Source of the DNA: Eubacteriales bacterium
GTDB taxonomy: Bacteria; Bacillota; Clostridia; Oscillospirales; CAG-272
Assembly (NCBI GenBank): GCA_045653805.1
Contig: JAZOMF010000075.1
Location: 1,112 to 65,111 of the forward strand
Reading direction: 5' to 3'
DNA: 64,000 bases
Shown here: positions 5,848-62,236 of the stretch, in pieces
Layout: the number at the start of each line of letters is the position of its first letter
Numbering within the stretch: the stretch's first letter is position 1
Program-made: the position numbers and the translations under genes
Notes under the pieces: generated by a model
What the model saw: only the letters and a program-made list of their open reading frames with translations
The model's database searches: none
What the model was told of the DNA's origin: nothing

Positions 5848-6779
5848 TGGCAGAGAAGAAGCTTGACAGTATCAAACTTAACCTCCTCCGTCAGGTCGCT
5901 GACCTTGAAACCGTTCCTACGGGAGCTTACTCCATCCGTGTTGACGGTGAAACCTTTGATAAGCAGTCCTCCGAGAATATTATTATCGAGAAAAAGACGG
6001 ACAAGCCCGGTATTGATATCTATATCAAGGCGGCAGGCAAGCGCGAGAGCGTCCATATCCCTGTAATTTTGGCGGAAAGTGGACTCAAAGAGGTCGTTTA
6101 CAACGATTTCCACATCGAAGAGGGCGCAGACGTGCTTATTGTCGCAGGATGCGGCATTCATAACTGCGGTGTTCAGGATAGTGAGCATAGCGGTATCCAC
6201 AGCTTCTACCTTGGCAAAAACGCGAAGGTAAAATACGTTGAAAAACACTACGGAGACGGCGACGGAAACGGCAAGAATATTATGAATCCCCATACCGTGG
6301 TAGAGCTTGCGGAGGGCGCATATATGGAAATGGAAACCACCCAGATCAAAGGCGTTGACTCCACCAAGCGTAAGACCGAGGCAGTGCTTCATGAAAAGTC
6401 CACTCTTATCGTTTACGAAAAGATAATGACCCACGGCGAGCAGTTTGCGGAGACCGAGTTCGTAGTTGACCTCAAGGGCGAGGATTGCGGCACACAGGTA
6501 GTTTCCCGTTCCGTTGCAAAGGATAACTCCCGTCAGCTCTTTATTTCCGATGTTGTTGGTAATGCAAAATGCTCCGGTCACACCGAATGCGATGCAATTA
6601 TTATGGATAACGCAAGCGTAGTTGCGATCCCCAAAATCGTGGCAAACGATACCGAGGCATCCCTTATCCACGAGGCGGCTATCGGTAAGATCGCAGGAGA
6701 GCAGCTTATCAAGCTCATGACCCTCGGTCTTGACGAAAAGCAGGCAGAGGAAGAGATCATCAACGGATTCTTGAAGTAA
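5847..6779 (+). CDS. sufB: Fe-S cluster assembly scaffold SufB/SufD family
   Basis: 310 aa, start overlapping the sufC stop (TAATG). The C-terminus EAAIGKI...EQLIKLMTLGLDEKQAEEEIINGFL is typical of SufB/D. Confidence 0.8.
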   Translation: MAEKKLDSIKLNLLRQVADLETVPTGAYSIRVDGETFDKQSSENIIIEKKTDKPGIDIYIKAAGKRESVHIPVILAESGLKEVVYNDFHIEEGADVLIVAGCGIHNCGVQDSEHSGIHSFYLGKNAKVKYVEKHYGDGDGNGKNIMNPHTVVELAEGAYMEMETTQIKGVDSTKRKTEAVLHEKSTLIVYEKIMTHGEQFAETEFVVDLKGEDCGTQVVSRSVAKDNSRQLFISDVVGNAKCSGHTECDAIIMDNASVVAIPKIVANDTEASLIHEAAIGKIAGEQLIKLMTLGLDEKQAEEEIINGFLK

Positions 6780-6793
6780 TTTGAGGTAAATTT

Positions 6794-6991
6794 ATGAAAA
6801 TAACCGAAAATCCCGATAAAGAGCTTGTTGCCATCGTAAAGGAAGGGCTTAAAAGACGAAACGGATACTGCCCTTGCCGCAGAGAGGACAAGCCCGAGTA
6901 CAAGTGCATGTGCGAGGAATTCAAGGCGCAGATAAAAGATCCCGACTTTGAGGGCTATTGCCACTGTATGCTATATTACAAGAGCAAGTAA
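6794..6991 (+). CDS. small ferredoxin:thioredoxin reductase catalytic-subunit-like protein (three CxC pairs)
   Basis: 65 aa with RBS GAGG, 15 nt after sufB. Motif is GYCPCR-X9-CMC-X15-CHC. Confidence 0.65.
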   Translation: MKITENPDKELVAIVKEGLKRRNGYCPCRREDKPEYKCMCEEFKAQIKDPDFEGYCHCMLYYKSK

Positions 6992-13411: not shown

Positions 13412-14761
13412 TTATTCGTCAAAATCATTGGTCTCAGGGCTACCTATGCCGAGTATCTCGTCCGAATCGGAGGTATCCAACACCTCAATGCCCTTAAGCT
13501 TCTTTTGTATCATATTATTTCGGTGTTGAGCGTCATCAAGCGATTTGCCCGCTTCATCTATCTTCTTCTTTGGCTTGGCAAGCACGGTGGAGAAGGTATC
13601 GTATTGTGACTTGACCGCAGAAAGTATCTTTCTTACCTCGTTAGCCTTTTCGTTGATAGCCGCAAAGCGGAAGCCCATAGCAAGGGAATTAAGCAAAGCG
13701 GTTATGGTCGAGGGACCTGCAATCATGATGTTGAACTCGGTCTGAAGTCGCTCGGGAATAGCATTTGGCGAGCTTGCGATCTCAGCATAAAGACCTTCAC
13801 TGGCAAGGTACATAATAGCGAATGGAGTGGTCTTGGGCACGCTAATATATTTGCTGATAGACCTTGCCTCTTGAATAACTCGTTCCTCAAGTGCCTTCTT
13901 TGCAGCCTTGGTAGCTTCAGGATCGGCTCTGTCAGCCGCCGCACAAAGGCGTACGTAATCCTCCATGGGGAATTTGGAGTCAAGAGGGAGATATGTGATC
14001 TCCGAGTAGTTTTCGCCAGAGGGTATCTTAATTGCAAACTCAACTCGCTCCTTGCTGGTGTTGGTGGGAGCATAATTTTCAACGTACATGTTGGGAATAG
14101 TCTGGTCAAGAATGTTCTTGAGCTGAACCTCTGCCCAGGTTCCTCTTGCCTTTACGTTTGTAAGCACGCGGTTAAGGGATGTCACGTGCTCGGTAATACC
14201 TCCCGACATCTCCTTCATCTCGCCCAGTGCCTTGTAGAGGTTTTCCAGCTGATCGGAAACCGTCTTAAATGAGCTGTCGAGTCGCTGGGTAAGGGTATTA
14301 GTCAACTTTTCGTCAACTACTGTTCTCATCTCGTCCAGCTTCTTTTCGTTACTCTCACGGATCTTCGTTAAAGACTCCTCAATTCGCAGATTCTGTTTTT
14401 CGTTCATTTCCGCATTCTTTTCGCGGATAGTGTTGATTCCAACCGACATTTCCTTAAAAATGCGCACAAGCTGAGCGTTATTTGTCTCTGTAAGGGCCTC
14501 TAAACGCTTATTTATCTCCGATATTTGTTTTGATACTTCGTTTCTCTGAGCCTGAGCACTCGCAGCTTGCTCGCTTCTGTTTCTGGAGAACTCATTATAA
14601 ATACTTTCTTTTAATTCATCTAACTTTTTCTCTGTTTGAGTACCGTCGGAAAGCTTACTGATCTTTGAATACAAAGCGGCAACAGCTACAAGGCATCCCG
14701 CAGACAATACGAGCAGAGCAATACAAATTATTAAAATATATGTATCCATATTATACCTCAC
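13412..14761 (-). CDS. rmuC: DNA recombination protein RmuC
   Basis: 449 aa with an N-terminal TM helix, a long coiled-coil and a C-terminal RmuC nuclease-like region. Confidence 0.8.
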   Translation of the reverse strand: MRYNMDTYILIICIALLVLSAGCLVAVAALYSKISKLSDGTQTEKKLDELKESIYNEFSRNRSEQAASAQAQRNEVSKQISEINKRLEALTETNNAQLVRIFKEMSVGINTIREKNAEMNEKQNLRIEESLTKIRESNEKKLDEMRTVVDEKLTNTLTQRLDSSFKTVSDQLENLYKALGEMKEMSGGITEHVTSLNRVLTNVKARGTWAEVQLKNILDQTIPNMYVENYAPTNTSKERVEFAIKIPSGENYSEITYLPLDSKFPMEDYVRLCAAADRADPEATKAAKKALEERVIQEARSISKYISVPKTTPFAIMYLASEGLYAEIASSPNAIPERLQTEFNIMIAGPSTITALLNSLAMGFRFAAINEKANEVRKILSAVKSQYDTFSTVLAKPKKKIDEAGKSLDDAQHRNNMIQKKLKGIEVLDTSDSDEILGIGSPETNDFDE

Positions 14762-34545: not shown

Positions 34546-34785
34546 TTATTTGTCCTCCGATGCTTTTTGATTTACGGTTACAGTCTATGAAAGAAAGGGA
34601 GGAAATATAACATTTTCGAAGAAAATCGGAGAAAAACACATGATAAATTGAAAATTCGGGAAATTTCTAAAAAAAATTTTTGACATCATTCAAAAGCAAA
34701 CGATATGAAAAAACGAGAAAAAACGAGAAAACAAGAGCTTTGTAAAAGGTAAATTAAAAAATTGAAAAAAATTTCAAAAAAGGTA

Positions 34786-34814
34786 TTGACAAACAAAAAG
34801 TGTTGTGATATAAT
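34786..34814 (+). promoter_or_regulatory. rplM-rpsI promoter (TTGACA-N17-TATAAT) with A-rich upstream region
   Basis: ttgacaaacaaaaagtgttgtgatataat. Confidence 0.7.
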
Positions 34815-34858
34815 ATCCAAGGTTTAAAAAATTACTTTTATTTTGGAGGATAACTAAA

Positions 34859-35287
34859 ATGTCTACTTTCATGCAGAAAAAAGAAGCAGTTGTCCGCAAG
34901 TGGTACGTTATCGACGCAGCAAACAAGCCTCTTGGCAGAACCGCTGTTGTTGCAGCCGACCTTCTCCGCGGAAAGAACGCTCCTGAATTCACCCCCCACG
35001 TTGACTGTGGTAACTTCGTTATTATCGTAAATGCTGACAAGGCAGTACTTACCGGTAAGAAGCTCGAGCAGAAATACTATCAGAGACACTCCGGCTACAT
35101 CGGTGGTCTTAAGAGCATTCAGTACAAGAAGCTCATGGCAGAAAAGCCTGAGTTCGCTATGGAAACAGCAGTAAAGGGAATGCTTCCCCACAACGCTCTC
35201 GGTAGAGCAGCGGCAACCAGACTCAAGGTATACTCCGGCGAGGCTCACAAGCATGAGGCTCAGAAGCCCGAGACCTACGAGTTTTAA
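34859..35287 (+). CDS. rplM: 50S ribosomal protein L13
   Basis: 142 aa, WYVIDA...GRTAV... Confidence 0.95.
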
Positions 35288-35313
35288 TTAAAGGAAAGGA
35301 AGGAAGATAACCT

Positions 35314-35715
35314 ATGTATACTAGTGCAAAGCCCTACTTCTACGGTACCGGTAGAAGAAAGAAGTCTGTTGCTCGTGTAAGAATTTACCCCGGTAACGGC
35401 AATATCACCATCAACGGCAAGGACATCGACACCTACTTCGGTCTCGAGACCCTTAAGCTCATCATCAACCAGCCTTTCGGCGTAACCGGCACTACCGGCA
35501 AGTTCGACATCGTTGCTAACGTAAACGGTGGCGGTATCTCCGGTCAGGCAGGTGCAATCCGTCACGGTGTAGCTCGTGCGCTCATCACCGCAGACGAGAA
35601 CTACCGTCCCGCTCTCAAGGCAGCTGGATTCCTCACCAGAGACCCTCGTATGAAGGAAAGAAAGAAGTACGGACTCAAGGGCGCTCGTCGTGCTCCTCAG
35701 TTCTCCAAGAGATAA
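35314..35715 (+). CDS. rpsI: 30S ribosomal protein S9
   Basis: 133 aa ending in the canonical RRAPQFSKR. Confidence 0.95.
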
Positions 35716-35777
35716 TTACCCGTTTGGAATTATTTCGATATACAAAAAGCTCTGCTATGCAGGGCTTTTTGTTTTGC
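35703..35777 (+). repeat. T0: native rpsI 3' end (ctccaagagataa) plus terminator; template of repeats T1 and T3
   Basis: ctccaagagataattacccgtttggaattatttcgatatacaaaaagctctgctatgcagggctttttgttttgc. Terminator stem at 35748-35766. Confidence 0.85.
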
Positions 35778-35794
35778 AGGGCAATGCCTTAGTG

Positions 35795-35846
35795 CCGCCG
35801 TTTTTGATTATGAATTTTTGCGGCGGGAGCAAGCCCCCCGCCCTAC
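35795..35846. repeat. R0: GC-rich hairpins ending in CCCTAC (REP-like when read on minus strand: GTAGGG...)
   Basis: ccgccg...cggcgg and ggcggg/cccgcc stems followed by ctac. Confidence 0.5.
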
Positions 35847-35855
35847 GTTTATGGG

Positions 35856-35940
35856 CGGTTCAATTTGTAAAAATTCTGCCGTCCTATTTACTTTTCGCCG
35901 TTTTTATGGTATAATCTAACTAATCGATAAACTTGAATTT
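35856..35940 (+). promoter_or_regulatory. P1: portable promoter/5'UTR module, copy 1
   Basis: cggttcaatttgtaaaaattctgccgtcctaTTTACTtttcgccgtttttaTGgTATAATctaactaatcgataaacttgaattt. Confidence 0.7.
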
Positions 35941-35957
35941 GTTTAGGAGGTATAAAT

Positions 35958-36281
35958 ATGTTTGGGTTGTTTGCTAAAAAGGTTATGAACGAAGAAGCGG
36001 CTAAGTGTTTTTGGGAATGGTTTGCTGAAAAAGAAGAATGGATTATCAGCTGTATTTCCAATCACGACTCCGCATTTGTATGGGCAATTGATGAAAAGTT
36101 AAAACCGGTATTCCCTTATTTCAAGGGAGAACTCGAATTCCAGCTTGGATACAACGATGGCGTTGGAGAATTTTTCTTCTTTCACTTTGGAAAGAAAGAC
36201 CTTGCTCGTGATGGCGAAGCTTTAGGGAAGATGATGCCTCCGGAGATCGCAAAAAATTGGAAACTTATTCTTGAAAAATAA
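35958..36281 (+). CDS. cassette gene A: 107-aa hypothetical cytoplasmic protein
   Basis: AGGAGG RBS. No motif I can recognise. Confidence 0.6.
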   Translation: MFGLFAKKVMNEEAAKCFWEWFAEKEEWIISCISNHDSAFVWAIDEKLKPVFPYFKGELEFQLGYNDGVGEFFFFHFGKKDLARDGEALGKMMPPEIAKNWKLILEK

Positions 36282-36288
36282 ATTGACC

Positions 36289-36468
36289 AATTCCAATTTG
36301 TCGAGAAAAATAGCGTTGAATGTTGGTGTGATTTTTGGTGCAAATTTGGTGCAACACTTTATCAAACGATACTCACGATATTCACGATATCGCACGAAAA
36401 CACACGATAAAGCTACGATATCACACGTATTTCCACGATATTCACGATATCAAACAGTATTGCTAAAA
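36289..36468 (+). repeat. I1: iteron-rich conserved 3' module, copy 1
   Basis: tttggtgcaa occurs twice at 11-bp period. Eight (C/T)ACG(A/T)(A/T) cores are spaced 9-11 bp apart. Near-identical to I3 except for a 31-nt insertion. Confidence 0.8.
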
Positions 36469-36543
36469 CTCGAAGAGATAATTTCTGCCTTACAGAGATT
36501 ATTTCGATATACAAAAAGCTCTGCTTCGGCAGAGCTTTTTGTT
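36469..36543 (+). repeat. T1: displaced copy of rpsI last codons (ctcgaagagataa) plus terminator
   Basis: The in-frame remnant still reads S-K-R-stop (TCC to TCG is synonymous). Terminator agctctgc-ttcg-gcagagct plus T-tract at 36517-36543. Confidence 0.8.
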
Positions 36544-36546
36544 ATT

Positions 36547-36573
36547 GTAGGGGCGTTCATTGAACGCCCCTAC
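36547..36573. repeat. R1: perfect 13-bp-arm palindrome gtaggggcgttca-t-tgaacgcccctac
   Basis: Read directly: GTAG head and CTAC tail. Confidence 0.7.
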
Positions 36574-36582
36574 GGACAAGAG

Positions 36583-36664
36583 CGGTTCAATTTGTAAAAA
36601 ATTGAACTGTTCTATTTACTTTTTGCAAAAATTATGGTACAATACAACTGATAAATAAACTTGA
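36583..36664 (+). promoter_or_regulatory. P2: portable promoter/5'UTR module, copy 2 (diverged)
   Basis: cggttcaatttgtaaaaaattgaactgttctaTTTACTttttgcaaaaattaTGgTACAATacaactgataaataaacttgaaa. Includes an 8-bp hairpin gttcaatt/aattgaac. Confidence 0.6.
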
Positions 36665-36677
36665 AAGGTAATTTATT

Positions 36678-37028
36678 ATGGCAGTTTACGATGCAAACAA
36701 TCTTGATATTGAAGCTGTTAGGAAAGATGGTGTTGTTGAACTATTCATCATATCGTCCGGCAAGTTTGATGACAGTGCTGAACAGCAGACTTTGCTTATG
36801 GATAAAATAGAAAACTATATAGGCTATGTTTTAAGCGACGAATTTAAAATCAAGCACCATGATTGTTCGAAGGAAAAAATTTGGATTGTACTAAGTTTAG
36901 AAAAAAAGCCCGGTAATTTGCTTGTGGAATTATGCAGAAAAATCCACCCATGGGTTAAGTCATATGGAATCAATTATAGAGTAGAATACAAATCGTTGTT
37001 TGGACAATACCGAAATTTAATTATATAG
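36678..37028 (+). CDS. cassette gene B: 116-aa hypothetical protein
   Basis: Weak RBS aaagg and a TAG stop. The pattern recalls small immunity-like proteins, from memory only. Confidence 0.55.
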   Translation: MAVYDANNLDIEAVRKDGVVELFIISSGKFDDSAEQQTLLMDKIENYIGYVLSDEFKIKHHDCSKEKIWIVLSLEKKPGNLLVELCRKIHPWVKSYGINYRVEYKSLFGQYRNLII

Positions 37029-37064
37029 CGACAAATTCCATATGACTTTTTGTGTTTTATTGGA

Positions 37065-37092
37065 AGGGACAGTCGAGGACGCCTGTCCCTAC
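37065..37092. repeat. R2: hairpin agggacag/ctgtccct ending in CCCTAC
   Basis: 8-bp stem. It occupies the same position relative to the P module as R0 and R1. Confidence 0.55.
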
Positions 37093-37103
37093 AAGACATA
37101 GGA

Positions 37104-37189
37104 CGGTTCAATTTGTAAAGAATTGAGCCGTCCTATTTACTTTTTGCCGTTTTTATGGTATAATCTAACTAATCGATAAACTTGAATTT
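37104..37189 (+). promoter_or_regulatory. P3: portable promoter/5'UTR module, copy 3 (almost identical to P1)
   Basis: cggttcaatttgtaaagaattgagccgtcctaTTTACTttttgccgtttttaTGgTATAATctaactaatcgataaacttgaattt. 10-bp hairpin cggttcaatt/aattgagccg. Confidence 0.7.
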
Positions 37190-37208
37190 GACAAAGGAGA
37201 ATATACTT

Positions 37209-37853
37209 ATGAAGAAAAGCATTTATTTAATATGTTTACTTTTAGTTTCTTGCCTTGTTTTCTCGTCCTGCTCTAAATCGGCAGGTCTTAATATAGGATT
37301 TGATGGAAGAATGGGACAATTGCCCGAGGTTTATTTTGGTGTGAAAAGCGATAAAACGGAGTTTAATATTGATGATGTTACTCTTGATTTTTCATACGGA
37401 GACGGAAGTGTTTCCGATGTAGAGGGTTATGTTGGCGGTGATAATGGAGAAGATTGCCCAATCGTCTGTATTGCCGTATATTTCTTTAATGCAAAGCACC
37501 AAGATACTGTAACAAGTTTTGGAGAGGCTCGTTTTGAAGATTATAAAGAAATCGAGGGGGTGTATTTTGTAAAAGAAATCAGCCTTGATGATTACAATGA
37601 AAATTATGATGTGGAAAATAGTTTTTGGGGTTGCAAATACGAACATACCGAAACCTTGACAATTCCCGAAGAAGTTATGGAACTTTCTACAGGTTATGCT
37701 TGTCTTGGCGTTTTTCAGATAGTATATATTCCTTCAGAAAATTTGTATCGTATTGTTGGCGGCGAATACCAAGCCTTAAAATACGAAAAACTTGACGGAG
37801 ATATGGTAAAAATATCAAAGCCCATAGGAAGCCACTACGAAGCCCCCAAATAA
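37209..37853 (+). CDS. cassette gene C: 214-aa lipoprotein of unknown function
   Basis: AAGGAGA RBS and lipobox LVFSSCSK. The track start at 37182 is rejected. Confidence 0.65.
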   Translation: MKKSIYLICLLLVSCLVFSSCSKSAGLNIGFDGRMGQLPEVYFGVKSDKTEFNIDDVTLDFSYGDGSVSDVEGYVGGDNGEDCPIVCIAVYFFNAKHQDTVTSFGEARFEDYKEIEGVYFVKEISLDDYNENYDVENSFWGCKYEHTETLTIPEEVMELSTGYACLGVFQIVYIPSENLYRIVGGEYQALKYEKLDGDMVKISKPIGSHYEAPK

Positions 37854-37864
37854 TAAAGCCGCAA

Positions 37865-38011
37865 AATTCCAATTTATCGACCAGAACAGCGTTGAATGTG
37901 GTGTAATTTTGGTGCAAATTTGGTGCAACACTTTATGCGACAATACTCACGATGTTCACGATATCGCACGTATTTCCACGATATTCACGATATCAAACGG
38001 TACTCTCAAAA
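37865..38011 (+). repeat. I3: iteron-rich conserved 3' module, copy 2
   Basis: Aligns with I1 base for base over most of its length. Five CACG(A/T)(A/T) cores at 9-10 bp spacing. Confidence 0.8.
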
Positions 38012-38087
38012 CTCCAAGAGATAATTACCCATTTGGGATTATTTCGATATACAAAAAGCTCTGCTTCGGCAGAGCTTTTTGTTTTGC
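38012..38087 (+). repeat. T3: second displaced copy of rpsI end (ctccaagagataattaccc...) plus terminator
   Basis: Matches T0 over about 75 nt. Its terminator is identical to that of T1 (UUCG loop), at 38057-38085. Confidence 0.85.
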
Positions 38088-38091
38088 GGTG

Positions 38092-38170
38092 CGGTTCAAT
38101 TTGTAAAAACTCTGCCATCCTATTTACTTTTCGGGAATTTTATGATATAATGCAACTGTTATATAAACTC
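38092..38170 (+). promoter_or_regulatory. P4: promoter module copy 4, contiguous with T3 (candidate ancestral rpsI-GNAT intergenic arrangement)
   Basis: cggttcaatttgtaaaaactctgccatcctaTTTACTtttcgggaattttaTGaTATAATgcaactg... Confidence 0.6.
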
Positions 38171-38190
38171 TGATTGGACGAGGTACAAAT

Positions 38191-38802
38191 ATGAACGCAA
38201 AGTTCAAGATTAACGAATTTGTTATAGAAACTGAAAGATTAATTTTACGTCCGTTTAAGCAATCTGACCTGCACGATTTTTACGAATACGCTTCTGTTCC
38301 GGGTGTTGGCGAAATGGCCGGTTGGAAGCATCACGAAACCATCGAAAAATCTCAAGAAATATTGGATATTTTTATTAAAGAAGATAAAACCTTCGCTATT
38401 GTTTTAAAAGAGAACAACAAGGTAATAGGTTCTCTTGGCATTGAAAAATACGGACTTGAGGACAAGCTGACAGAATTTAATAGTTATTATGGACGTGAAA
38501 TCGGTTACGTATTATCTAAGGATTACTGGGGAAAAGGCATAATGCCTGAAGCGGTAATGGCTGTAATTAACTATTTGTTCAACAATTTGCAGTTCGACTT
38601 TTTGACCTGTGGATATTATAACTTTAACAACCAATCAAAGAGAGTTCAGGAAAAGTGTGGGTTTAAGCCTTATAGAAAACTTACTATGGATACTCGTTTA
38701 GGTACGAAAGAACCCGGTGTCCTAAATTTACTTATCAATCCCGCAAAAAACATTTCTCTTGCGTTCTCTCATCCCGAAACGTTGATTTATAAATGGTGCT
38801 AA
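38191..38802 (+). CDS. GNAT N-acetyltransferase (RimJ/RimL-like)
   Basis: 203 aa with the typical ETERLILRPF N-terminus and a GKGI...A acetyl-CoA motif. Confidence 0.8.
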   Translation: MNAKFKINEFVIETERLILRPFKQSDLHDFYEYASVPGVGEMAGWKHHETIEKSQEILDIFIKEDKTFAIVLKENNKVIGSLGIEKYGLEDKLTEFNSYYGREIGYVLSKDYWGKGIMPEAVMAVINYLFNNLQFDFLTCGYYNFNNQSKRVQEKCGFKPYRKLTMDTRLGTKEPGVLNLLINPAKNISLAFSHPETLIYKWC

Positions 38803-38825
38803 AATTCAATTTGAAGAGGTATTAA

Positions 38826-39107
38826 ATGAAAAAATCATTTGCATGCAGTGTAATATGCCAAGGTGGAATAGTTGGCGGTAGTCTTTCTATTGACGAAAAA
38901 TCCATCACCTACAAGACAAATAAGCTTACCGTAGACAGCAAATACAGAAACCTCGTTTTGCCGCTCATTGGCATCAGAGAGCTTTCGTGGAAATGGATAG
39001 TTTTCCCCGTGGCAACCTTATACATGACAAACGGGGAACAGTATAAGTTCATAATATTCAATAAAAAAGGGTTCAACGAATACTTTGCCGAAGTCATGCA
39101 ACTTTAA
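38826..39107 (+). CDS. 93-aa hypothetical protein (possibly bacterial PH-like fold)
   Basis: RBS AGAGG. The fold guess is weak. Confidence 0.5.
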   Translation: MKKSFACSVICQGGIVGGSLSIDEKSITYKTNKLTVDSKYRNLVLPLIGIRELSWKWIVFPVATLYMTNGEQYKFIIFNKKGFNEYFAEVMQL

Positions 39108-39130
39108 TTATATTTGATTCCTCACATGTA

Positions 39131-39159
39131 TTGACAAACTAAAAAATTGGTGATATAAT
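39131..39159 (+). promoter_or_regulatory. perfect extended consensus promoter TTGACA-N17(TGa)-TATAAT
   Basis: ttgacaaactaaaaaattggtgatataat. Confidence 0.75.
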
Positions 39160-39193
39160 AAAACTACCAAAATTTTCAGGAGGAATAAATACT

Positions 39194-39307
39194 ATGGCAA
39201 GACTTCTTTCTTTCGGTTGTGAGGCGATCGTATCCGCACCCGCGTTAATTCTTATCGCCGTATCTGTAGTTAGCTCTGTTGTAGTTTTCTTTAAGAAAAA
39301 GAAATAA
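39194..39307 (+). CDS. 37-aa hydrophobic peptide with KKKK tail (not in ORF track)
   Basis: AGGAGG RBS 10 nt upstream. Sequence MARLLSFGCEAIVSAPALILIAVSVVSSVVVFFKKKK, TAA stop, two hairpins downstream. Confidence 0.6.
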   Translation: MARLLSFGCEAIVSAPALILIAVSVVSSVVVFFKKKK

Positions 39308-39350
39308 TATAAATAACGGCGGAAAATATCCGCCGTTATTTCATATAAAA

Positions 39351-39380
39351 ACGGAGAGGCAAAAACCTCTCCGTTTTCTT
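39351..39380. terminator. bidirectional terminator (small peptide gene / gpmI)
   Basis: acggagagg-caaaaa-cctctccgt flanked by A- and T-tracts. An additional hairpin lies at 39313-39339. Confidence 0.75.
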
Positions 39381-39389
39381 TATCAAAAA

Positions 39390-41051
39390 TCACTTAAGCT
39401 CAATAACGCTTTCGTCCCACTTTGCGGGCGCCTCGTAACCCATAAGGTTAACCATAGTAGCCGCTACGTTGGAGAGACCGAAGTTGCCCTCGTCTGCCTT
39501 TACGGTGTAGTGATTCTTTGCATCGGTGTTGTCGTAAATGATGCAGGGAACCTTGTTGAGGGTGTGGCTGGTCTTAGCTTTCATCTTGCCATTCTTATCA
39601 ACCTTGGGCTGACCCTTCTTGTCCATCTCAAACATTTCGTCAGCATTACCGTGGTCTGCGGTGAGAAGAGCAACGCCACCCAGCTTGTCAACAACTGCAA
39701 GGATTCTGCCGATCTGAAGGTCAAGAGCCTCCATAGAGCATCTTGTAGCCGCAAGAGAGCCGGTATGACCTACCATATCTCCGTTGGGGAAGTTTACTCT
39801 GTAATAGTCATGCTCGCCTGCCTCAAGAGCCGCGATGAGCTTATCGGTGATCTCTGCGCACTTCATCCAAGGTCTCTGCTCAAAGGGAACTACGTCGGAA
39901 AGAACCTCAACGTATGTCTCATTCTCCTCGGAGAACTTGCCGGACTTGTTACCGTTCCAGAAGTAGGTAACGTGACCGTATTTCTGGGTCTCGGAGATAG
40001 CATACTGCTTAACGCCGGTGTTAGCGAGGTACTCGCCCATAGTCTCGGTGATCTCGGGGGGATTTACAAGGAACTTGGAGGGGATGTGAAGGTCGCCGTC
40101 GTATTCAAGCATACCTGCGTAAACTACCTTAGGAACGCGAACTCTGTCGAACTTGTCAAAGGCACCCTCGGGAGCGTCGAAGGTCTTGGATATCTCAATG
40201 GAGCGGTCGCCACGGAAGTTGAAGAAGATAACGCTGTCGCCGTCTTCAACGGTACCAACGGGCTTGCCGTCCTCTGCGATTACGAAGGGAGGAAGATCCT
40301 GGTCGATTACCTTAAGCTCTGCTCTGTAGGTCTCAACTGCCTCAGCTGCGCTTGCAAACTGTCTGCCCTCGCCAAGAACGTGGGTCTTCCAGCCAAGCTC
40401 GACCATAGACCAGTCTGCTTCATATCGGTCCATAGTGATCTTCATTCTACCGCCGCCGCTTGCGATCTTGATGTTGCAGTTAGCGTCGGAAAGGGATGCA
40501 ATGTATTCCTCAAAGGGATTGATGTACTCAAGTGCGCTGGTCTCACCAACGTCACGACCATCGATAAGGATGTGAATGCGGATGTTTGCAATGCCATCAG
40601 CCTTAGCCTGTGCGATCATAGCCTTGAGGTGATCGATGTGAGAGTGAACGTTACCGTCGGAGAAAAGTCCGAGGAAGTGAAGAGTAGAAGCGTTAGCCTT
40701 AACGTTGCCAACGATCTCCTGCCAAGTAGAAGAAGCGAACATCTTGCCGCTTTCAATGCTCTGTGTTACCAGCTTTGCGCCCTGAGCGAACACCTGACCC
40801 GCGCCGAGAGCGTTGTGACCAACCTCACTGTTACCCATATCGTCATCAGAGGGAAGACCAACGGCAGTACCGTGAGCCTTGAGAGCAACCATAGGATAGT
40901 TTGCCATAAGAGCGTCGAGATTAGGAGTGTAAGCGCCTGCAACTGCGTTGGAAATAGTGTCGGGAGCAAGTCCTACGCCATCCATAACGATGGTGAGAAC
41001 GGGACCCTTAACACCTTCAAACTTTGCGCTTTTGTTAAGTGTAAGTGCCAT
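39390..41051 (-). CDS. gpmI: 2,3-bisphosphoglycerate-independent phosphoglycerate mutase
   Basis: 553 aa with DGVGL, NSEVGHNALGAG and a metal-binding ADHGNAD motif. Confidence 0.9.
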   Translation of the reverse strand: MALTLNKSAKFEGVKGPVLTIVMDGVGLAPDTISNAVAGAYTPNLDALMANYPMVALKAHGTAVGLPSDDDMGNSEVGHNALGAGQVFAQGAKLVTQSIESGKMFASSTWQEIVGNVKANASTLHFLGLFSDGNVHSHIDHLKAMIAQAKADGIANIRIHILIDGRDVGETSALEYINPFEEYIASLSDANCNIKIASGGGRMKITMDRYEADWSMVELGWKTHVLGEGRQFASAAEAVETYRAELKVIDQDLPPFVIAEDGKPVGTVEDGDSVIFFNFRGDRSIEISKTFDAPEGAFDKFDRVRVPKVVYAGMLEYDGDLHIPSKFLVNPPEITETMGEYLANTGVKQYAISETQKYGHVTYFWNGNKSGKFSEENETYVEVLSDVVPFEQRPWMKCAEITDKLIAALEAGEHDYYRVNFPNGDMVGHTGSLAATRCSMEALDLQIGRILAVVDKLGGVALLTADHGNADEMFEMDKKGQPKVDKNGKMKAKTSHTLNKVPCIIYDNTDAKNHYTVKADEGNFGLSNVAATMVNLMGYEAPAKWDESVIELK

Positions 41052-55075: not shown

Positions 55076-57013
55076 TTAAAGTTCTGCCTTGATCTCTGCG
55101 ATCTCATCAAGCCAAATCGCGCTTGTTGCATCGGAGGGCATCTTGAAATCGTTGTAGGAAAGTCCAACCGAGCCGACCTTGGGGCCGTCGGGCATGCAAG
55201 AACGCTTGAACTGCTGTGCGAAGAAACGGCGAGCAAATACCTCAAGCCACTTGATAAGGGTAGCATCGTCGTAAACTCCGTTAAAAGCTATCTTTGCAAG
55301 TCTGAATATCTTCTTGAGCGAATATCCGTATCTTACGAAATTGAAGATATAGAAATCGTGAAGCTCGTAAGGGCCAACCAAGTCTTCAGTCACCTGCGCG
55401 ATCTCTCCGTTGTCCTTTGCGGGAAGAAGCTCGGGAGACACGGGAGTGTCGAGAATATCGTAAAGGGAAGTAGCAAGCGCATCCTCTCCCTTTGCCTTTG
55501 CACTATCGGCACAATGTCTTACAACATGTCTGATAAGTGTCTTGGGGAGCGAGCTGTTAACACCGTACATAGACATGTGGTCTCCGTTGTAGGTAGCCCA
55601 ACCAAGCGCAAGCTCGGAAAGGTCACCCGTACCGACTACGATACCACCCTCGGCATTGGCGATGTCCATAAGCACCTGGGTACGCTCTCTAGCTTGTGCA
55701 TTTTCGTAAACCACGTTGTGGTTGTTCATATCGTGTCCAATGTCCTTAAAATGCTGCTCTACTGCGGCAAAAATGTTTACCTCTCGGAAATCTACGCCTA
55801 AAGCCTCGCAAAGCACGGTAGCGTTATTTTTAGTTCTTCCGGTAGTGCCGAAGCAGGGCATAGTTACCGCAATTATATCCTTGCGGTCGCGTCCAAGGTA
55901 GTCCATAGCACGAGCCATAACCAAAATAGCAAGGCAGGAATCAAGTCCGCCCGAAATACCCACAACCGCTTTCTTGGCATAAGAAGCCTCTATTCTGCGA
56001 GCAAGACCCAAGGACTGAATATCCAGTATTCTCTCGCATCTTGCCGCTTTCTCGGGGCTTTCCGCGGGAACGAAGGGATGGGGCTCTACACTTCGTGTGA
56101 GAACTGTATCACATACCTCAAGATCAAATTCAATCTCGGAGAATTCCATTCCAAAGGTGTCCTTGGTAAATGTGTTCTTAATGCGTCTTTCACGGGATAC
56201 GTTATGGAGGTCAACCTCGCTGATAACGAGGTCTCCGTCACCAAAGGGCTTTCTCTCCGCCAACAGTCTACCGCACTCAACAACCATGGCGTGACCGCCG
56301 AAAACTATGCAGGAGGTAGACTCGCCAAGTCCCGCACCTGAATAGATATAAGCCGAAAGTGTACGAGTGGACTGAGCGCATACCATCATTCTGCGGTATT
56401 CTTCTTTGCCAACTGTTTCGCCAGAAGCCGCAGGATTAACAATTATAGTAGCACCTGCTGCTGCAAGCACGCTGGAGGGGGCAGCCGCAACAAGCAAATC
56501 CTCACAGATCTCAATACCGAGGCGGAGCATAGGCATCTGACGGCAAACGAACATCTGCTTAAGACCAAGCATTACCACGCTATCGTCAAATACATATGCA
56601 AAATTATCATCGGGAGCAGATGCGAATATTCTTGCCTCATAAGCCTCAAGATAAGTGGGAAGATTTTTCTTGGGAACCAGACCGAGGAGCTGACCGCCCG
56701 AAACTACTGCGGCACAGTTATAGATCTTATCGCTAAAGGAGATAGGCAGACCGATAACGCTGACCATATCGAGCATAGCGGTAGCATAAATATACTCGCG
56801 AAGGGCATTAAGCGCACCGTCAAGCAGAGTGTCGGTACTGAAAAGGTCTCCGCAGGAGTATCCCGTAAGAGCAAGCTCAGGGAAAACAAGCACCTTGACA
56901 CCTGCCTCGCTTGCCTTTTGTGCAAGAGAAATACAAGATTCGCAATTAAATTTAGTATTAGCCACCTTAACCGCAGGAACTGCAGCGGCAACCTTAATAA
57001 AACCGTCTTTCAT
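55076..57013 (-). CDS. nadE: glutamine-dependent NAD+ synthetase
   Basis: 645 aa with an N-terminal CN-hydrolase domain (FPELALTGY) and a C-terminal SGGLDS PP-loop. Confidence 0.9.
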   Translation of the reverse strand: MKDGFIKVAAAVPAVKVANTKFNCESCISLAQKASEAGVKVLVFPELALTGYSCGDLFSTDTLLDGALNALREYIYATAMLDMVSVIGLPISFSDKIYNCAAVVSGGQLLGLVPKKNLPTYLEAYEARIFASAPDDNFAYVFDDSVVMLGLKQMFVCRQMPMLRLGIEICEDLLVAAAPSSVLAAAGATIIVNPAASGETVGKEEYRRMMVCAQSTRTLSAYIYSGAGLGESTSCIVFGGHAMVVECGRLLAERKPFGDGDLVISEVDLHNVSRERRIKNTFTKDTFGMEFSEIEFDLEVCDTVLTRSVEPHPFVPAESPEKAARCERILDIQSLGLARRIEASYAKKAVVGISGGLDSCLAILVMARAMDYLGRDRKDIIAVTMPCFGTTGRTKNNATVLCEALGVDFREVNIFAAVEQHFKDIGHDMNNHNVVYENAQARERTQVLMDIANAEGGIVVGTGDLSELALGWATYNGDHMSMYGVNSSLPKTLIRHVVRHCADSAKAKGEDALATSLYDILDTPVSPELLPAKDNGEIAQVTEDLVGPYELHDFYIFNFVRYGYSLKKIFRLAKIAFNGVYDDATLIKWLEVFARRFFAQQFKRSCMPDGPKVGSVGLSYNDFKMPSDATSAIWLDEIAEIKAEL

Positions 57014-60466: not shown

Positions 60467-62236
60467 TTATTTCTTTCTCATTCTCTTGATCTTTTCCTCG
60501 TCAGGAGTGACGAAAGCAGACCAATTATTGTGGTAGATAACAAAACCCGGCTTTGCTCCGGAAACCTTCTTAACGCCACGTGCGAAAAGGTAGTCAACCT
60601 CAACGCTCGACTTACCCTTCGCCTTTGAGAAATATGCGGCGATCTCGCAAGCATCGGTAAAGTCTTCGGCAGGCGGCTCCTCACCGTTGGTTATCATCAA
60701 CACGTGAGAGCCAGCCATATTCTTGGCGTGGAACCAATAGTCGTGTCGCTCGGCTAACTTGTGGGTGATATACTCATTCTGATAGTTATTCTTTCCGCAA
60801 AGCACTCGATAGCCGTTGGTGGTAATAAACTCGGCAATCACGGGCGCTATCTGCTTTTTGGGAGCGGAGTAGCCCTTCATTTTAGATGCATAACCGCTTC
60901 TGTAAAGCTCATCACGAATCTCGGTCAAGTCAGCAGCAGTCTCGGCTTTTGCAAGGGCATCGAACACCGAATAGATGTATTCAAGCTCCTGTCTTGCAAT
61001 TTGAAGCTGACGGGCAAGCTCCACCTTTGCGGTCTTGCTCTTGTTATACAACTTATAGTATCTTTGGGCGTTAGCGGCAGGGGAAAGTCGCTCGTCAAGA
61101 GTGATGACGGTGGTATCGAAATCCTGCTTTTCTTCGTTCCAGCTCTCGTAATCTACAAGCTCAACCGACTTGTCGCCGCGCTTCAATTTATAAAGATTAG
61201 CGGTGATAAGATCGCCGTAAGATTTATATTTTTCACCCTTTTCGCAATCTGCAAGCTCGCCCTCCTGGGCTTCAATCTTCTTAGTCAAACGAGATTCCGC
61301 ATTGGCAAGCAGACGCAGAATATCCGCCGCCCTCTGCTTAACTCTTATCTCTCGGTCGCGGCTCGCAAAATAGAGGTCAAGGGCCTCCGAGGGACTTTCA
61401 AAAGTCTTATAGTCAAAGCCTTCCCCGTAGTAATCAAGGGAAACAAAGGAATACTCAATAGGCATGCCGTTTTCCACTATTACGGTGGGCGCAAACACAC
61501 CGTTAGATATATCCTCAAAGACTGCAGAGAAAACCCTATAAAGTTGCTCACAACCAATAGCGCACACGGTGGAATCGTGTCTGCCGGATGCACGGAAGGC
61601 AATCTCGCGCGCCACACTTGTAGCAATCCCGAGATACGAAGAGGTAATAAATTTATCTGCGCTGCGCTCCTCGGGAAAGCTTTTGTAAGCAGCAGAGAAC
61701 TCCTCAAAAGTCGTCTTTGTAGGATCAAGCTTTTCCTGCGCAGGGGGAAGCTCATATGTCATGCCGGGCAGTACTTGACGGAGACTGCTGGTAGTAAAAT
61801 CCACAGTTTTCAGCGCCGCAATAACCTTCATTCGCTCATCGCAGAAAATTAGGTTGGAATACTTGCCCATAATCTCTGCAACCAGATACTTCTTGCAATC
61901 AAAGCCCATCTCGTCGCGAGTATCAAAGCTCAGCTTGACAACGCGCTCAAACCCAGCCTGCTCAATGTCCGAAAGAGACGCACCCGTCAGATGTTTGCGC
62001 AGAAGCATGCAAAACATCGGCGCCTGCATGGGATTTTCTCTCTGAGCCGCCGTAAAACCGATTCGGGGACAGTTGCTTCCCGCGTTGATAAGCAATCGCT
62101 TGCCGCCCGCCAGAGTTCTCATCTGAAGAATTATCTCATCTCGCTCGGGTTGATATATTTTCTCAATTCTGCCGCCCTGCGCCACAGTTTTAAGCTCGTG
62201 AACAACGCACGATAGCATACCTGCATCAAATGCCAT
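60467..62236 (-). CDS. rqcH: ribosome quality-control NFACT protein RqcH (FbpA/Rqc2 homolog)
   Basis: Start at MAFDAGML. It has an N-terminal NFACT-N domain, a coiled coil, and a C-terminal NFACT-R-like FHAKNMAGSHV motif. Confidence 0.85.
   Translation of the reverse strand: MAFDAGMLSCVVHELKTVAQGGRIEKIYQPERDEIILQMRTLAGGKRLLINAGSNCPRIGFTAAQRENPMQAPMFCMLLRKHLTGASLSDIEQAGFERVVKLSFDTRDEMGFDCKKYLVAEIMGKYSNLIFCDERMKVIAALKTVDFTTSSLRQVLPGMTYELPPAQEKLDPTKTTFEEFSAAYKSFPEERSADKFITSSYLGIATSVAREIAFRASGRHDSTVCAIGCEQLYRVFSAVFEDISNGVFAPTVIVENGMPIEYSFVSLDYYGEGFDYKTFESPSEALDLYFASRDREIRVKQRAADILRLLANAESRLTKKIEAQEGELADCEKGEKYKSYGDLITANLYKLKRGDKSVELVDYESWNEEKQDFDTTVITLDERLSPAANAQRYYKLYNKSKTAKVELARQLQIARQELEYIYSVFDALAKAETAADLTEIRDELYRSGYASKMKGYSAPKKQIAPVIAEFITTNGYRVLCGKNNYQNEYITHKLAERHDYWFHAKNMAGSHVLMITNGEEPPAEDFTDACEIAAYFSKAKGKSSVEVDYLFARGVKKVSGAKPGFVIYHNNWSAFVTPDEEKIKRMRKK

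Follow-up and report, generated by a model that had tools for sequence, protein, structure and literature searches.

Introduction

Integration of an integrative and mobilizable element (IME) at the 3′ end of rpsI, the gene for ribosomal protein S9, has been described previously (PMC5090054), and a three-step route has been laid out that leads from integration through decay to a cis-mobilizable element (CIME) to re-integration (PMC5704250, section 2.3). In Faecalibacterium, elements in tandem and in nested arrangement have been described (PMC12084326). In IMESag-rpsI of Streptococcus agalactiae and in the ICESt1/CIME system of S. thermophilus, an element with a tyrosine integrase sits at the 3′ end of rpsI or of a housekeeping gene, and the gene end is regenerated; the attachment (att) sites form direct repeats, and decayed derivatives without an integrase are found in tandem (PMC5090054; PMC5704250). 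Here, we describe a locus with the same traits in a 64,000-nt stretch of DNA from a Eubacteriales bacterium of the order Oscillospirales (assembly GCA_045653805.1, contig JAZOMF010000075.1, positions 1,112 to 65,111), hereafter referred to as the window. We interpret positions 35703–39130 of the window, from the last codons of rpsI towards gpmI, as most likely an accretion array, built up at the chromosomal attachment site used by small IMEs of one family that target the 3′ end of rpsI.

The preliminary description of this DNA, made from the sequence alone, had proposed that small cassettes integrated repeatedly at a site overlapping the rpsI stop codon, and had pointed to precedents for accretion and for rpsI as a target, which the papers cited above bear out. 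That accretion model was largely right, with the corrections given below, and it missed an apparent nested level of promoterless open reading frame (ORF) cassettes. In open-access text, we found no paper on arrays of single-gene, self-promoted mini-units behind rpsI, and none on ORF cassettes bounded by 13-nt sites in Firmicutes.

Results

Repeated modules downstream of rpsI

The target gene, rpsI, is a 133-aa ORF at 35314–35715 that matches Pfam Ribosomal_S9, and all features of the window described below lie on the same, forward strand. A repeat search gave three copies of the rpsI end with its terminator (T), four of a promoter and 5′ untranslated region (UTR) module (P) and two of a repeat-rich module (I), as first reported. 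Each T copy begins with a core, CTC[C/G]AAGAGATAATT, at 35703–35717, 36469–36483 and 38012–38026, and a terminator, ACAAAAAGCTCTGC..GCAGRGCTTTTTGT, follows every one of them; the 27-mer ATTATTTCGATATACAAAAAGCTCTGC of T occurs three times in the window, with none expected. Core copy 1 (CTCCAAGAGATAATT), which is attL-like, includes the last 13 nt of rpsI. The right half of T0 (35718–35777) consists of a small hairpin with a variable inner stem and an intrinsic terminator (stem at 35742–35772; fold z-score −4.4). T1 (36469–36543), made up of core copy 2 (CTCGAAGAGATAATT), hairpin and terminator, is at once the attR of the first unit (A) and the left end of the second (B), and T3 (38012–38087) has core copy 3, the hairpin and a terminator at 38051–38082. 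T is predicted to fold as two hairpins, a small one spanning the stop codon and then the strong terminator. Both T1 and T3 read N-S-K-R-stop in frame, with a synonymous TCG in T1 for the TCC of rpsI, again in agreement with the first report.

The four P copies share an invariant 16-mer, CGGTTCAATTTGTAAA, starting at 35856, 36583, 37104 and 38092 (four exact matches in 64 kb compared to 0.87 expected, plus one match with two mismatches at 61179). All have TTTACT, a 17-nt spacer and TATAAT (TACAAT in P2) with TG ahead, are 71–95% identical to P1 across 73 nt, and are predicted to be active as promoters. P1 (35853–35941) comprises an imperfect palindrome with the 16-mer, a promoter (35887–35915) and the 5′ UTR. 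P2 (36580–36665, promoter 36615–36643) is the most diverged copy; P3 (37098–37190, promoter 37136–37164) has a 16-7-16 palindrome at 37098–37136; and the promoter of P4 (38089–38177) is at 38123–38151. The invariant left part of P lies within an inverted repeat of 13–16 nt that encloses a 7-nt spacer. This lox-like geometry is best preserved at 37098–37136 and is also seen at 35853–35884, 36579–36613 and 38089–38120. The left arm and spacer are constant, the right arm occurs in about four variants, and several array joints fall at or inside this palindrome.

GC-rich hairpins ending in CCCTAC stand just 5′ of P1, P2 and P3, at 35797–35846 (an imperfect hairpin within the GC-rich spacer 35778–35852), 36547–36573 (the perfect hairpin TAGGGGCGTTCATTGAACGCCCCTAC; the fold of 36466–36575 has −37.8 kcal/mol and a z-score of −12.4) and 37066–37092. 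They look like a small insertion, similar to repetitive extragenic palindromic (REP) sequences or miniature inverted-repeat transposable elements (MITEs), that favours the left edge of P.

The I modules, I1 (36288–36468) and I3 (37864–38011), share TTGGTGCAAATTTGGTGCAAC, found at 36335–36355 in I1 and matched by the repeat at 37909–37929 in I3, as well as three to six CACGATA repeats. In I1, these read CACGA(T/A)A (n = 6, 36374–36449); in I3, they lie at 37957–37992. A 25-mer of I occurs twice in the window, with no occurrence expected.

Three mutually unrelated ORFs lie between the T copies, each behind a P module, as had been noted: cargo A (35958–36281, 107 aa, no family match), cargo B (36678–37028, 116 aa, DUF6572) and cargo C (37209–37853, 214 aa, a lipoprotein-like signal, no family match). 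Downstream of T3 and P4, a GNAT gene (38191–38802, Acetyltransf_3) is the first gene of the terminal unit, and a 93-aa ORF (38826–39107) is stacked behind it. Exact-protein look-up of cargo A and of the 93-aa ORF gave no match on record. Tandem duplication of one ancestral promoter-gene unit was ruled out, since the ORFs are unrelated and the units vary between strains.

The GC fraction falls to 0.32–0.39 over 35800–39400, compared to 0.45–0.55 in the flanks. The AT-rich stretch reported earlier is thus present, but the end given for it (38170) was too short: the island reaches the gpmI stop at 39390 and the array 39130. Elsewhere in the 64 kb, T, P or I motifs gave only the mismatched P match at 61179 and one at 55352 (the 11-mer TTCACGATATC with one mismatch). 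A scan of 34600–39500 against Rfam gave no match reaching the gathering score, only sub-threshold chance matches, which rules out a known RNA family as the identity of the modules, and a blastn search of 35703–38190 against plasmid and phage collections gave no match. No tyrosine recombinase was found in the window (best family hidden Markov model E-value 0.3), as the preliminary description had stated for integrases, and tblastn detected no remnant of an integrase gene (int) there.

Variation among relatives

All comparison sequences, denoted by L numbers, were contigs or metagenome-assembled genomes (MAGs) from short-read metagenomes. The comparison of the rpsI interval across relatives that had been suggested at the outset gave ten contigs with an identical RpsI protein, in which different ORFs lie among the same P, I and T modules; the genes between rpsI and gpmI include GNATs, Acyl_transf_3 and DUF6199 genes and unknowns. 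Most of these contigs are shorter than 2 kb, because the assemblies break in the array. None of the window cargo genes was present in L001–L010. In the closest contig, L004 (98.5% nucleotide identity over rplM–rpsI), homology ends at 35719, two bases past the core, and homology to relatives resumes between 39131 and 39388. The interval is wholly different between strains that are 97–98% identical in its flanks; it is thus hypervariable, and not the invariant array that would have spoken against accretion.

Contigs L136 and L137, from two sample series, show how a single unit was gained or lost. Both read rpsI, core, the right half of T1, hairpin, P2, B, hairpin, P3 and C, and are 97.6% identical to 36469–37762. 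The window therefore corresponds to these contigs plus unit A, 766 bp (35718–36483) bounded by direct core repeats and missing from L136 and L137. The crossover lies in the 11–15-nt core and not in the adjoining 28-nt identical block, which favours site-specific over homologous recombination. Along with the break in L004, unit A supports the site-specific attachment site overlapping the rpsI stop that had been postulated.

We considered the possibility that the array is a fossil with no ongoing site-specific activity, shaped by RecA-dependent recombination and deletion among the 75–180-nt modules after DNA uptake. The modules are 70–97% identical and could support homologous exchange, several joints are at or inside P rather than the core (L001 compared to L002, and the window compared to L135), and the window has no integrase. 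However, the position of the unit A crossover does not fit this explanation, nor do two observations described below, the presence of cassette C at a locus devoid of flanking homology and the abundance of near-identical integrase genes in metagenomes. Thus, we regard a fossil array as unlikely.

A scan for the P pattern in one genome per species gave at least 119 stretches. Those listed all belong to MAGs of uncultured Oscillospiraceae, Eubacteriales or Clostridia that were obtained from the gut, of ruminants and other sources; two carry the title Acutalibacteraceae. For 39 of the listed stretches, the 8-kb storage block was too short to tell what lies upstream. In 72 of the 80 informative ones, rpsI was just upstream on the same strand, with a median of 210 nt from its stop codon, and the remaining eight had at least 3 kb upstream with no rpsI. 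These exceptions, and the REP-like CCCTAC hairpins, are what could be expected of a generic REP- or MITE-like intergenic repeat or promoter family with no tie to rpsI. However, two of the eight exceptions carry a full integrase gene and are intact elements, the tie to rpsI holds in the other 72, and the motifs are confined to the array within the 64 kb apart from the two mismatched matches. A generic family is therefore highly improbable, and the dispersal of modules that the preliminary description had named as evidence against itself was not found.

Among 87 rpsI genes, the serine codon preceding Lys-Arg-stop was TCC in 52, TCG in 16, TCA in 11 and AGC in six. These variants are the same as those on element-borne ends, as would be expected if recombination repeatedly rewrites the last rpsI codons. 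In about 15 genomes (among them L010, L033, L035, L040, L041, L050, L052, L067, L075, L083, L086, L087, L090 and L108), the gene end recurs in inverted orientation, GTTATCTCTTGGAGAAC, behind the terminator and within the first 110 nt after rpsI, which lets the stop region pair into a long hairpin. This may be either an att copy in reverse or a structure of another kind.

An intact parent element at the same site

Related genomes have an intact element of ≈6.3 kb at the same position of rpsI. Starting from the rpsI core, it comprises a terminator, arm repeats, genes for a small tyrosine recombinase, Rep, ArdA, Xis and integrase (Int), and then P, cargo, I and core. In L019, L160 and L161, a new terminator and TTGGTGCAA repeats (Ia) directly follow the rpsI core; the genes that come next encode a 315-aa protein, a Rep_OBD and helicase protein and ArdA, followed by an Xis-like protein of 64 aa and a tyrosine integrase (Phage_integrase) of 387 aa (5197–6577 in L019 for these last two), and P comes immediately after the integrase gene. 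In L127, an integrase 99.7% identical to the L019 type is followed by P, a GNAT-like cargo gene, an I module almost identical to that of the window and the core; L127 and L154 both have a counterpart of I1 between cargo and core. The parent element thus combines an integrase with a Rep of the rolling-circle replication (RCR) type (Rep_OBD plus S3-type helicase) and ArdA, and no conjugation genes were found in its ≈6.3 kb. Its Int has a SAM_3 domain and an arm-type architecture. The integrase family is abundant, with 277 homologues, 244 of which form a 99% cluster of metagenome sequences, and a second family with 42% identity (L092, L114, L055) uses the same gene end with arm repeats of its own.

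L154 holds one insertion in a naive site. Its attL is CTCCAAG/AGATAATC (the slash marks the joint), followed by the terminator and arm repeats, and its attR, preceded by an I module, is ..AAAAACTCCAAG/CGCTGATTTT, reading CTCCAAG/CGCTGA; the crossover therefore took place within CTCCAAG. Consequently, the native gene ended in AAG CGC TGA, and AGA TAA and the terminator were supplied by the element. When eight attL and attR sites were aligned, CTC[C/G]AAG was the sole invariant, with a left flank of either the rpsI type or the I type.

The I module could be read as a set of integrase arm-type sites or as a plasmid iteron origin. We infer arm-type sites, because the TTGGTGCAA repeats flank the core on both sides in intact elements, as integrase arm sites do, and because the Rep of the element is of the HUH/RCR type, not the iteron type; the same two points make an iteron origin unlikely. 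In L156 (10001–12100), an integrase with 68% identity is directly followed by I and core, and P and cargo are found only past the core, so that element variants differ in where P stands with respect to the att site. An I-module 20-mer, TTGGTGCAAATTTGGTGCAA, was present in five stretches on four viral contigs (L011 and L014, which are one IMG/VR contig, and L012, L013 and L015); the P pattern had no match in viral contigs. In L011 (≈13659–13678; L014, 3–22), the 20-mer has a tRNA 3′ end on one side and the gene of a P4-like integrase on the other, in the other three contigs it is intergenic, and the host elements are unrelated. It may be a widely reused arm-type site.

Array units as stripped right ends of the element

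In at least 25 arrays, tblastn detected truncated 3′ ends of int (18–134 aa) immediately ahead of P. Upstream of 173 P copies in relatives, we found an int tail in 44 cases, the T terminator in 43 and the GC-rich CCCTAC hairpin in 53. Thus, P is natively the region between int and the cargo, and its palindrome at the same time forms a terminator-like hairpin behind int. Many units in relatives are deletion remnants of ≈6-kb elements and, judged by their sequence, the window units are integrase-less right ends of rpsI elements.

The preliminary description had taken T3, P4 and the GNAT gene for the undisturbed ancestral interval. This part has to be abandoned: the terminal unit differs among strains with identical RpsI, P is native to elements with int, as the 44 int tails show, and T3 has the AGATAA and terminator that, from the naive site of L154, are element-supplied. 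In the identical-RpsI strains, the last unit before gpmI is another GNAT, a DUF6199 gene or a nucleotidyltransferase. The pair of GNAT and 93-aa genes forms the terminal unit on three other contigs, with T and P always ahead and different units upstream. It is probably the oldest unit of its sub-lineage, in which the I module and core at the right end were lost or never present.

Unit B lacks an I or T module at its right end, where a degenerate copy of the cassette site described below, ACAAATTCCATATGAC, and the CCCTAC hairpin fill 37029–37097. The exact cargo B protein is found on 12 contigs, in varied positions and with varied neighbours. The unit comes first after rpsI in L136, L137 and L140, and follows the I module and core of another unit in the window and in L135. 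L140, from another species, and L135 have a second variant of unit B that differs in its terminator-side sequence.

Several observations weigh against the interpretation of the locus as an accretion array of such right ends. Unit B and the terminal GNAT unit have neither I nor core at their right ends, and some joints must therefore have been made otherwise, by recombination at or near P or by deletion. The window units are devoid of the left-arm Ia repeats that are present in the attL of intact elements, so canonical excision of these units may be lost. No integrase is found in the window and none could be assigned to its own genome, and no circular form was found when contigs with terminal overlaps were sought. 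Finally, repeats break the short-read metagenome assemblies on which all comparisons depend; however, the repeats do not reach the length of the assembler k of 141, and independent samples show the key arrangements again.

Apparent ORF cassettes nested within the units

An alignment of 97 complete units at their 5′ and 3′ joints showed that, in most of them, conservation stopped sharply at two related sites. At the 5′ joint, the conserved 5′ UTR ends at ..GATAAACTTGAATTTG/ACGAGG (in the form AAACTTGAATTTG/ACGAGG), where the ribosome-binding site (RBS) precedes the ORF. At the 3′ joint, the stop codon is followed by (AC)AAATTCCAATTTG/TCGAGC.., and the I module starts there. The sites that bound the cargo are 13 nt long, AAACTTGAATTTG and AAATTCCAATTTR, and are also written AAACTTGAATTTGAC and ACAAATTCCAATTTGTCGAG; they have an approximate 8-6-8 symmetry, TCGACAAA TTCCAA TTTGTCGA, without likeness to the canonical dif site (11-6-11). 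The motif AAAYTYSAATTTR occurs three times in the window, always in the array, compared to 0.11 expected.

In the window, AAACTTGAATTTG closes P1 (35929–35941) and P3 (37178–37190), and I1 and I3 open with CAATTCCAATTTG (36288–36300) and AAATTCCAATTTA (37864–37876), respectively; P2 and P4 end in degenerate sites. Most units have a P of their own. ORFs stacked behind a single P, as in the window (38191–39107), L154 and L131, are joined by a hybrid, AAATTCCAATTTG/ACGAGG-RBS-ATG, which was found in at least ten loci. The window has one at 38801–38825, where AAAATTCAATTTG (38801–38813) is followed by AAGAGG (RBS) and ATG. The 93-aa ORF behind this joint has a family member in first position in L033, and cargo families in general are found in first or second position. 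The 139 site-flanked ORFs fell into 103 families, 88 of them singletons. Among 70 family representatives there were 10 GNATs, four helix-turn-helix proteins, three NUDIX proteins, three small P-loop kinases and two MazG proteins, and one each of Imm33, a chromate transporter, GrpB and others.

The clearest case is cassette C (37178–37878), which consists of site, RBS, ORF and site. Its protein is identical on 14 contigs, of which the eight listed (L143–L150) come from another organism with a different chromosomal context: alr, mscS, a Polbeta nucleotidyltransferase, ScmC, C and an HD gene. The common DNA is 701 nt with 99.1% identity, and runs from exactly AAACTTGAATTTG to AAATTCCAATTTATC. No P, I or T module was found at this locus in L143–L150, and with no flanking homology, homologous recombination is impossible as the cause. 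An excised circle of cassette C would join as the hybrid site AAAATTCCAATTT/GACAAAGGAG. L090 resembles a footprint of precise excision, and in yet another context an I0-type site overlaps the ScmC stop codon. A search for an empty target of cassette C through ScmC homologues found none, only more varied contexts, and the nucleotidyltransferase and ScmC of L143 were not among the sampled array cargo.

In L143 (5100–7560), the operon after mscS (Polbeta nucleotidyltransferase, ScmC, cassette C) opens with a U5-like site, AAAGTTAATTTGACGAAGAGG, and in L143–L150 it may serve as a further platform for cassettes, one without a link to rpsI. L145 has two 181-aa ORFs of equal length, one of which interrupts alr and the other of which follows cassette C (1961–2506 and 6363–6908); they may be two copies of a small insertion sequence.

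Every intact rpsI element encodes a second, divergent tyrosine recombinase, the 315-aa protein (L019 887–1834, L154 6354–7265, L160 738–1685), with 32% identity between element variants. Pfam detects only a SAM-like N-terminal domain; the protein keeps GFRRSS, EKGGK, HxYR, SHNR and a terminal Tyr, corresponding to the catalytic R..K..HxxR..H..Y. Its predicted structure (predicted local distance difference test score 77.7) had only tyrosine recombinases as top matches in the PDB, with XerH, XerA, Cre, VchIntIA and Tn1549 Int among the top ten at probabilities of 0.92–1.0. Only 12 homologues were found in 5.8 billion proteins. The protein has no domain for arm binding, a trait shared with enzymes whose targets are simple palindromic sites, and the best copies of the P palindrome (37098–37136) have a 13-7-13 layout. 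From its modelled fold, this recombinase may be the enzyme that moves the cassettes. Another candidate may be Int itself, acting on a secondary site, TTCCAAT, that resembles the core CTCCAAG.

These results led us to weigh an explanation in which an integron-like cassette platform is the main engine of the locus: a dedicated recombinase would move promoterless ORFs behind a fixed P, and the T, I and P units would be mere vehicles. The sharp boundaries AAACTTGAATTTG/ACGAGG and AAATTCCAATTTG/TCGAG, the hybrid stacked joints, the transfer of cassette C between unrelated loci with ends at the sites, the exchange of position among cargo families and their diversity, the L090 footprint and the second, arm-less recombinase, similar to XerH, Cre and IntI, all speak for it. 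However, no recombinase is linked to the sites; no empty platform, in which P would be fused directly to I, was found on searching; the sites are short and AT-rich with no stable fold; the hybrid joints could also have arisen by deletion between direct repeats; and B and the GNAT gene in the window have only degenerate sites. The idea is a serious contender, to which we give somewhat less than even weight. We are similarly cautious about a combined scheme in which these gut Oscillospirales capture genes at two levels, through mini elements at rpsI and through a nested integron-like platform of int, promoter and insertion site; it is conceivable, though we would not rely on it. The further notion that cassettes bounded by AAAYTYSAATTTR, with near-palindromic sites of ≈13–20 nt, also insert elsewhere and cross between organisms is held just as tentatively.

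The right border

The variable region ends at a conserved chromosomal right flank (39131–39390), as delimited by comparison with relatives. Within it, at 39131–39307, a perfect sigma-70 promoter (TTGACA-17-TATAAT with TG) precedes a 37-aa hydrophobic ORF ending in KKKK (39194–39307), which is conserved in L055 and L061 and forms a fixed right border of the variable region. The terminator of the right flank is common to gpmI and the region of the 37-aa ORF.

Discussion

We propose the following explanation for the array. The intact element, as seen in relatives, recombines at CTC[C/G]AAG, and its left end brings AGATAA and a terminator, so that rpsI stays intact. Its right end comprises int, the terminator-like palindrome, a strong extended −10 promoter with the conserved 5′ UTR (together, P), one to a few cargo ORFs, I and the core. 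The window units would be miniaturised, CIME-like derivatives with terminator, P and cargo, of which only A and C have retained I and core. New units would enter at the rpsI-proximal core and displace older ones downstream, and the units would be reshuffled wherever recombination acts on the core, on the left edge of P or on the short sites to either side of the ORFs. The net outcome would be a hypervariable locus of constitutively expressed accessory genes behind a highly expressed ribosomal operon. Integrases of the 387-aa type presumably did the integrating in trans, and the small units and the cassettes are predicted, from comparative breakpoints, to be mobile. Several characteristics of a CIME-like array are found: direct repeats of the att core, units with no integration or transfer genes of their own, a related autonomous element that uses the same site and has the same end sequences, and a presence/absence polymorphism with its crossover in the core.

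The array would represent a major hotspot of strain-level variation at one fixed locus in a large clade of uncultured Clostridia from herbivore and human guts. Accessory genes for GNATs, NUDIX and MazG hydrolases, small kinases, lipoproteins and immunity-like proteins would be acquired there, transcribed from a strong promoter already in place, and later lost. It also accounts for assemblies of such genomes breaking right after rpsI. The small pieces involved, namely the core, arm repeats, Int and Xis and 0.8-kb units, make for a tractable test system.

Compared to the streptococcal IMEs and CIMEs, the units described here are far smaller, 0.5–1.5 kb with one or two genes, and every unit has the same conserved promoter and 5′ UTR module. 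The arrays are clade-wide in uncultured Oscillospirales, with at least 119 species-level genomes, and their cargo turns over completely between strains that are 97–98% identical. The parent element resembles many streptococcal IMEs in its Int, Xis and RCR-type Rep; it differs from them in its size of ≈6.3 kb, in its ArdA and second small recombinase and in having no MOBV relaxase.

Small gene modules that move between contexts with the help of short sites are also known from Acinetobacter plasmids, where pdif (Xer) modules are bounded by sites of two arms and a 6-nt spacer; the sites described here are in direct orientation and ≈13–20 nt long. Phage morons, like the units of the array, are self-contained sets of promoter, gene and terminator added between conserved genes, whereas the units here are chromosomal and have att copies and integrase arm repeats at their borders.

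The comparison with integrons is the most instructive at the level of the cassettes. As in an integron, single-gene units form an array in one orientation, the cargo is very diverse and mostly of unassigned function or GNAT-type, and a short imperfect palindrome stands at the 3′ end of the ORF. A fixed promoter next to the integrase gene may likewise drive promoterless ORFs, as the ORFs stacked behind a single P suggest. Nevertheless, the array cannot be classed as an integron, since IntI and attC are both missing: an arm-binding enzyme of the Tn916/lambda type serves as the integrase, and in place of folded attC sites of 57–141 nt there are palindromes of ≈13–20 nt with no stable fold. Furthermore, the platform rides in repeated copies on an integrative element, and most units have their own promoter. 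By analogy, the cassette level would work like an integron. If this nested layer exists, Gram-positive bacteria would have a functional counterpart of the integron, assembled from different parts, which would bear on the old question of why Firmicutes lack integrons.

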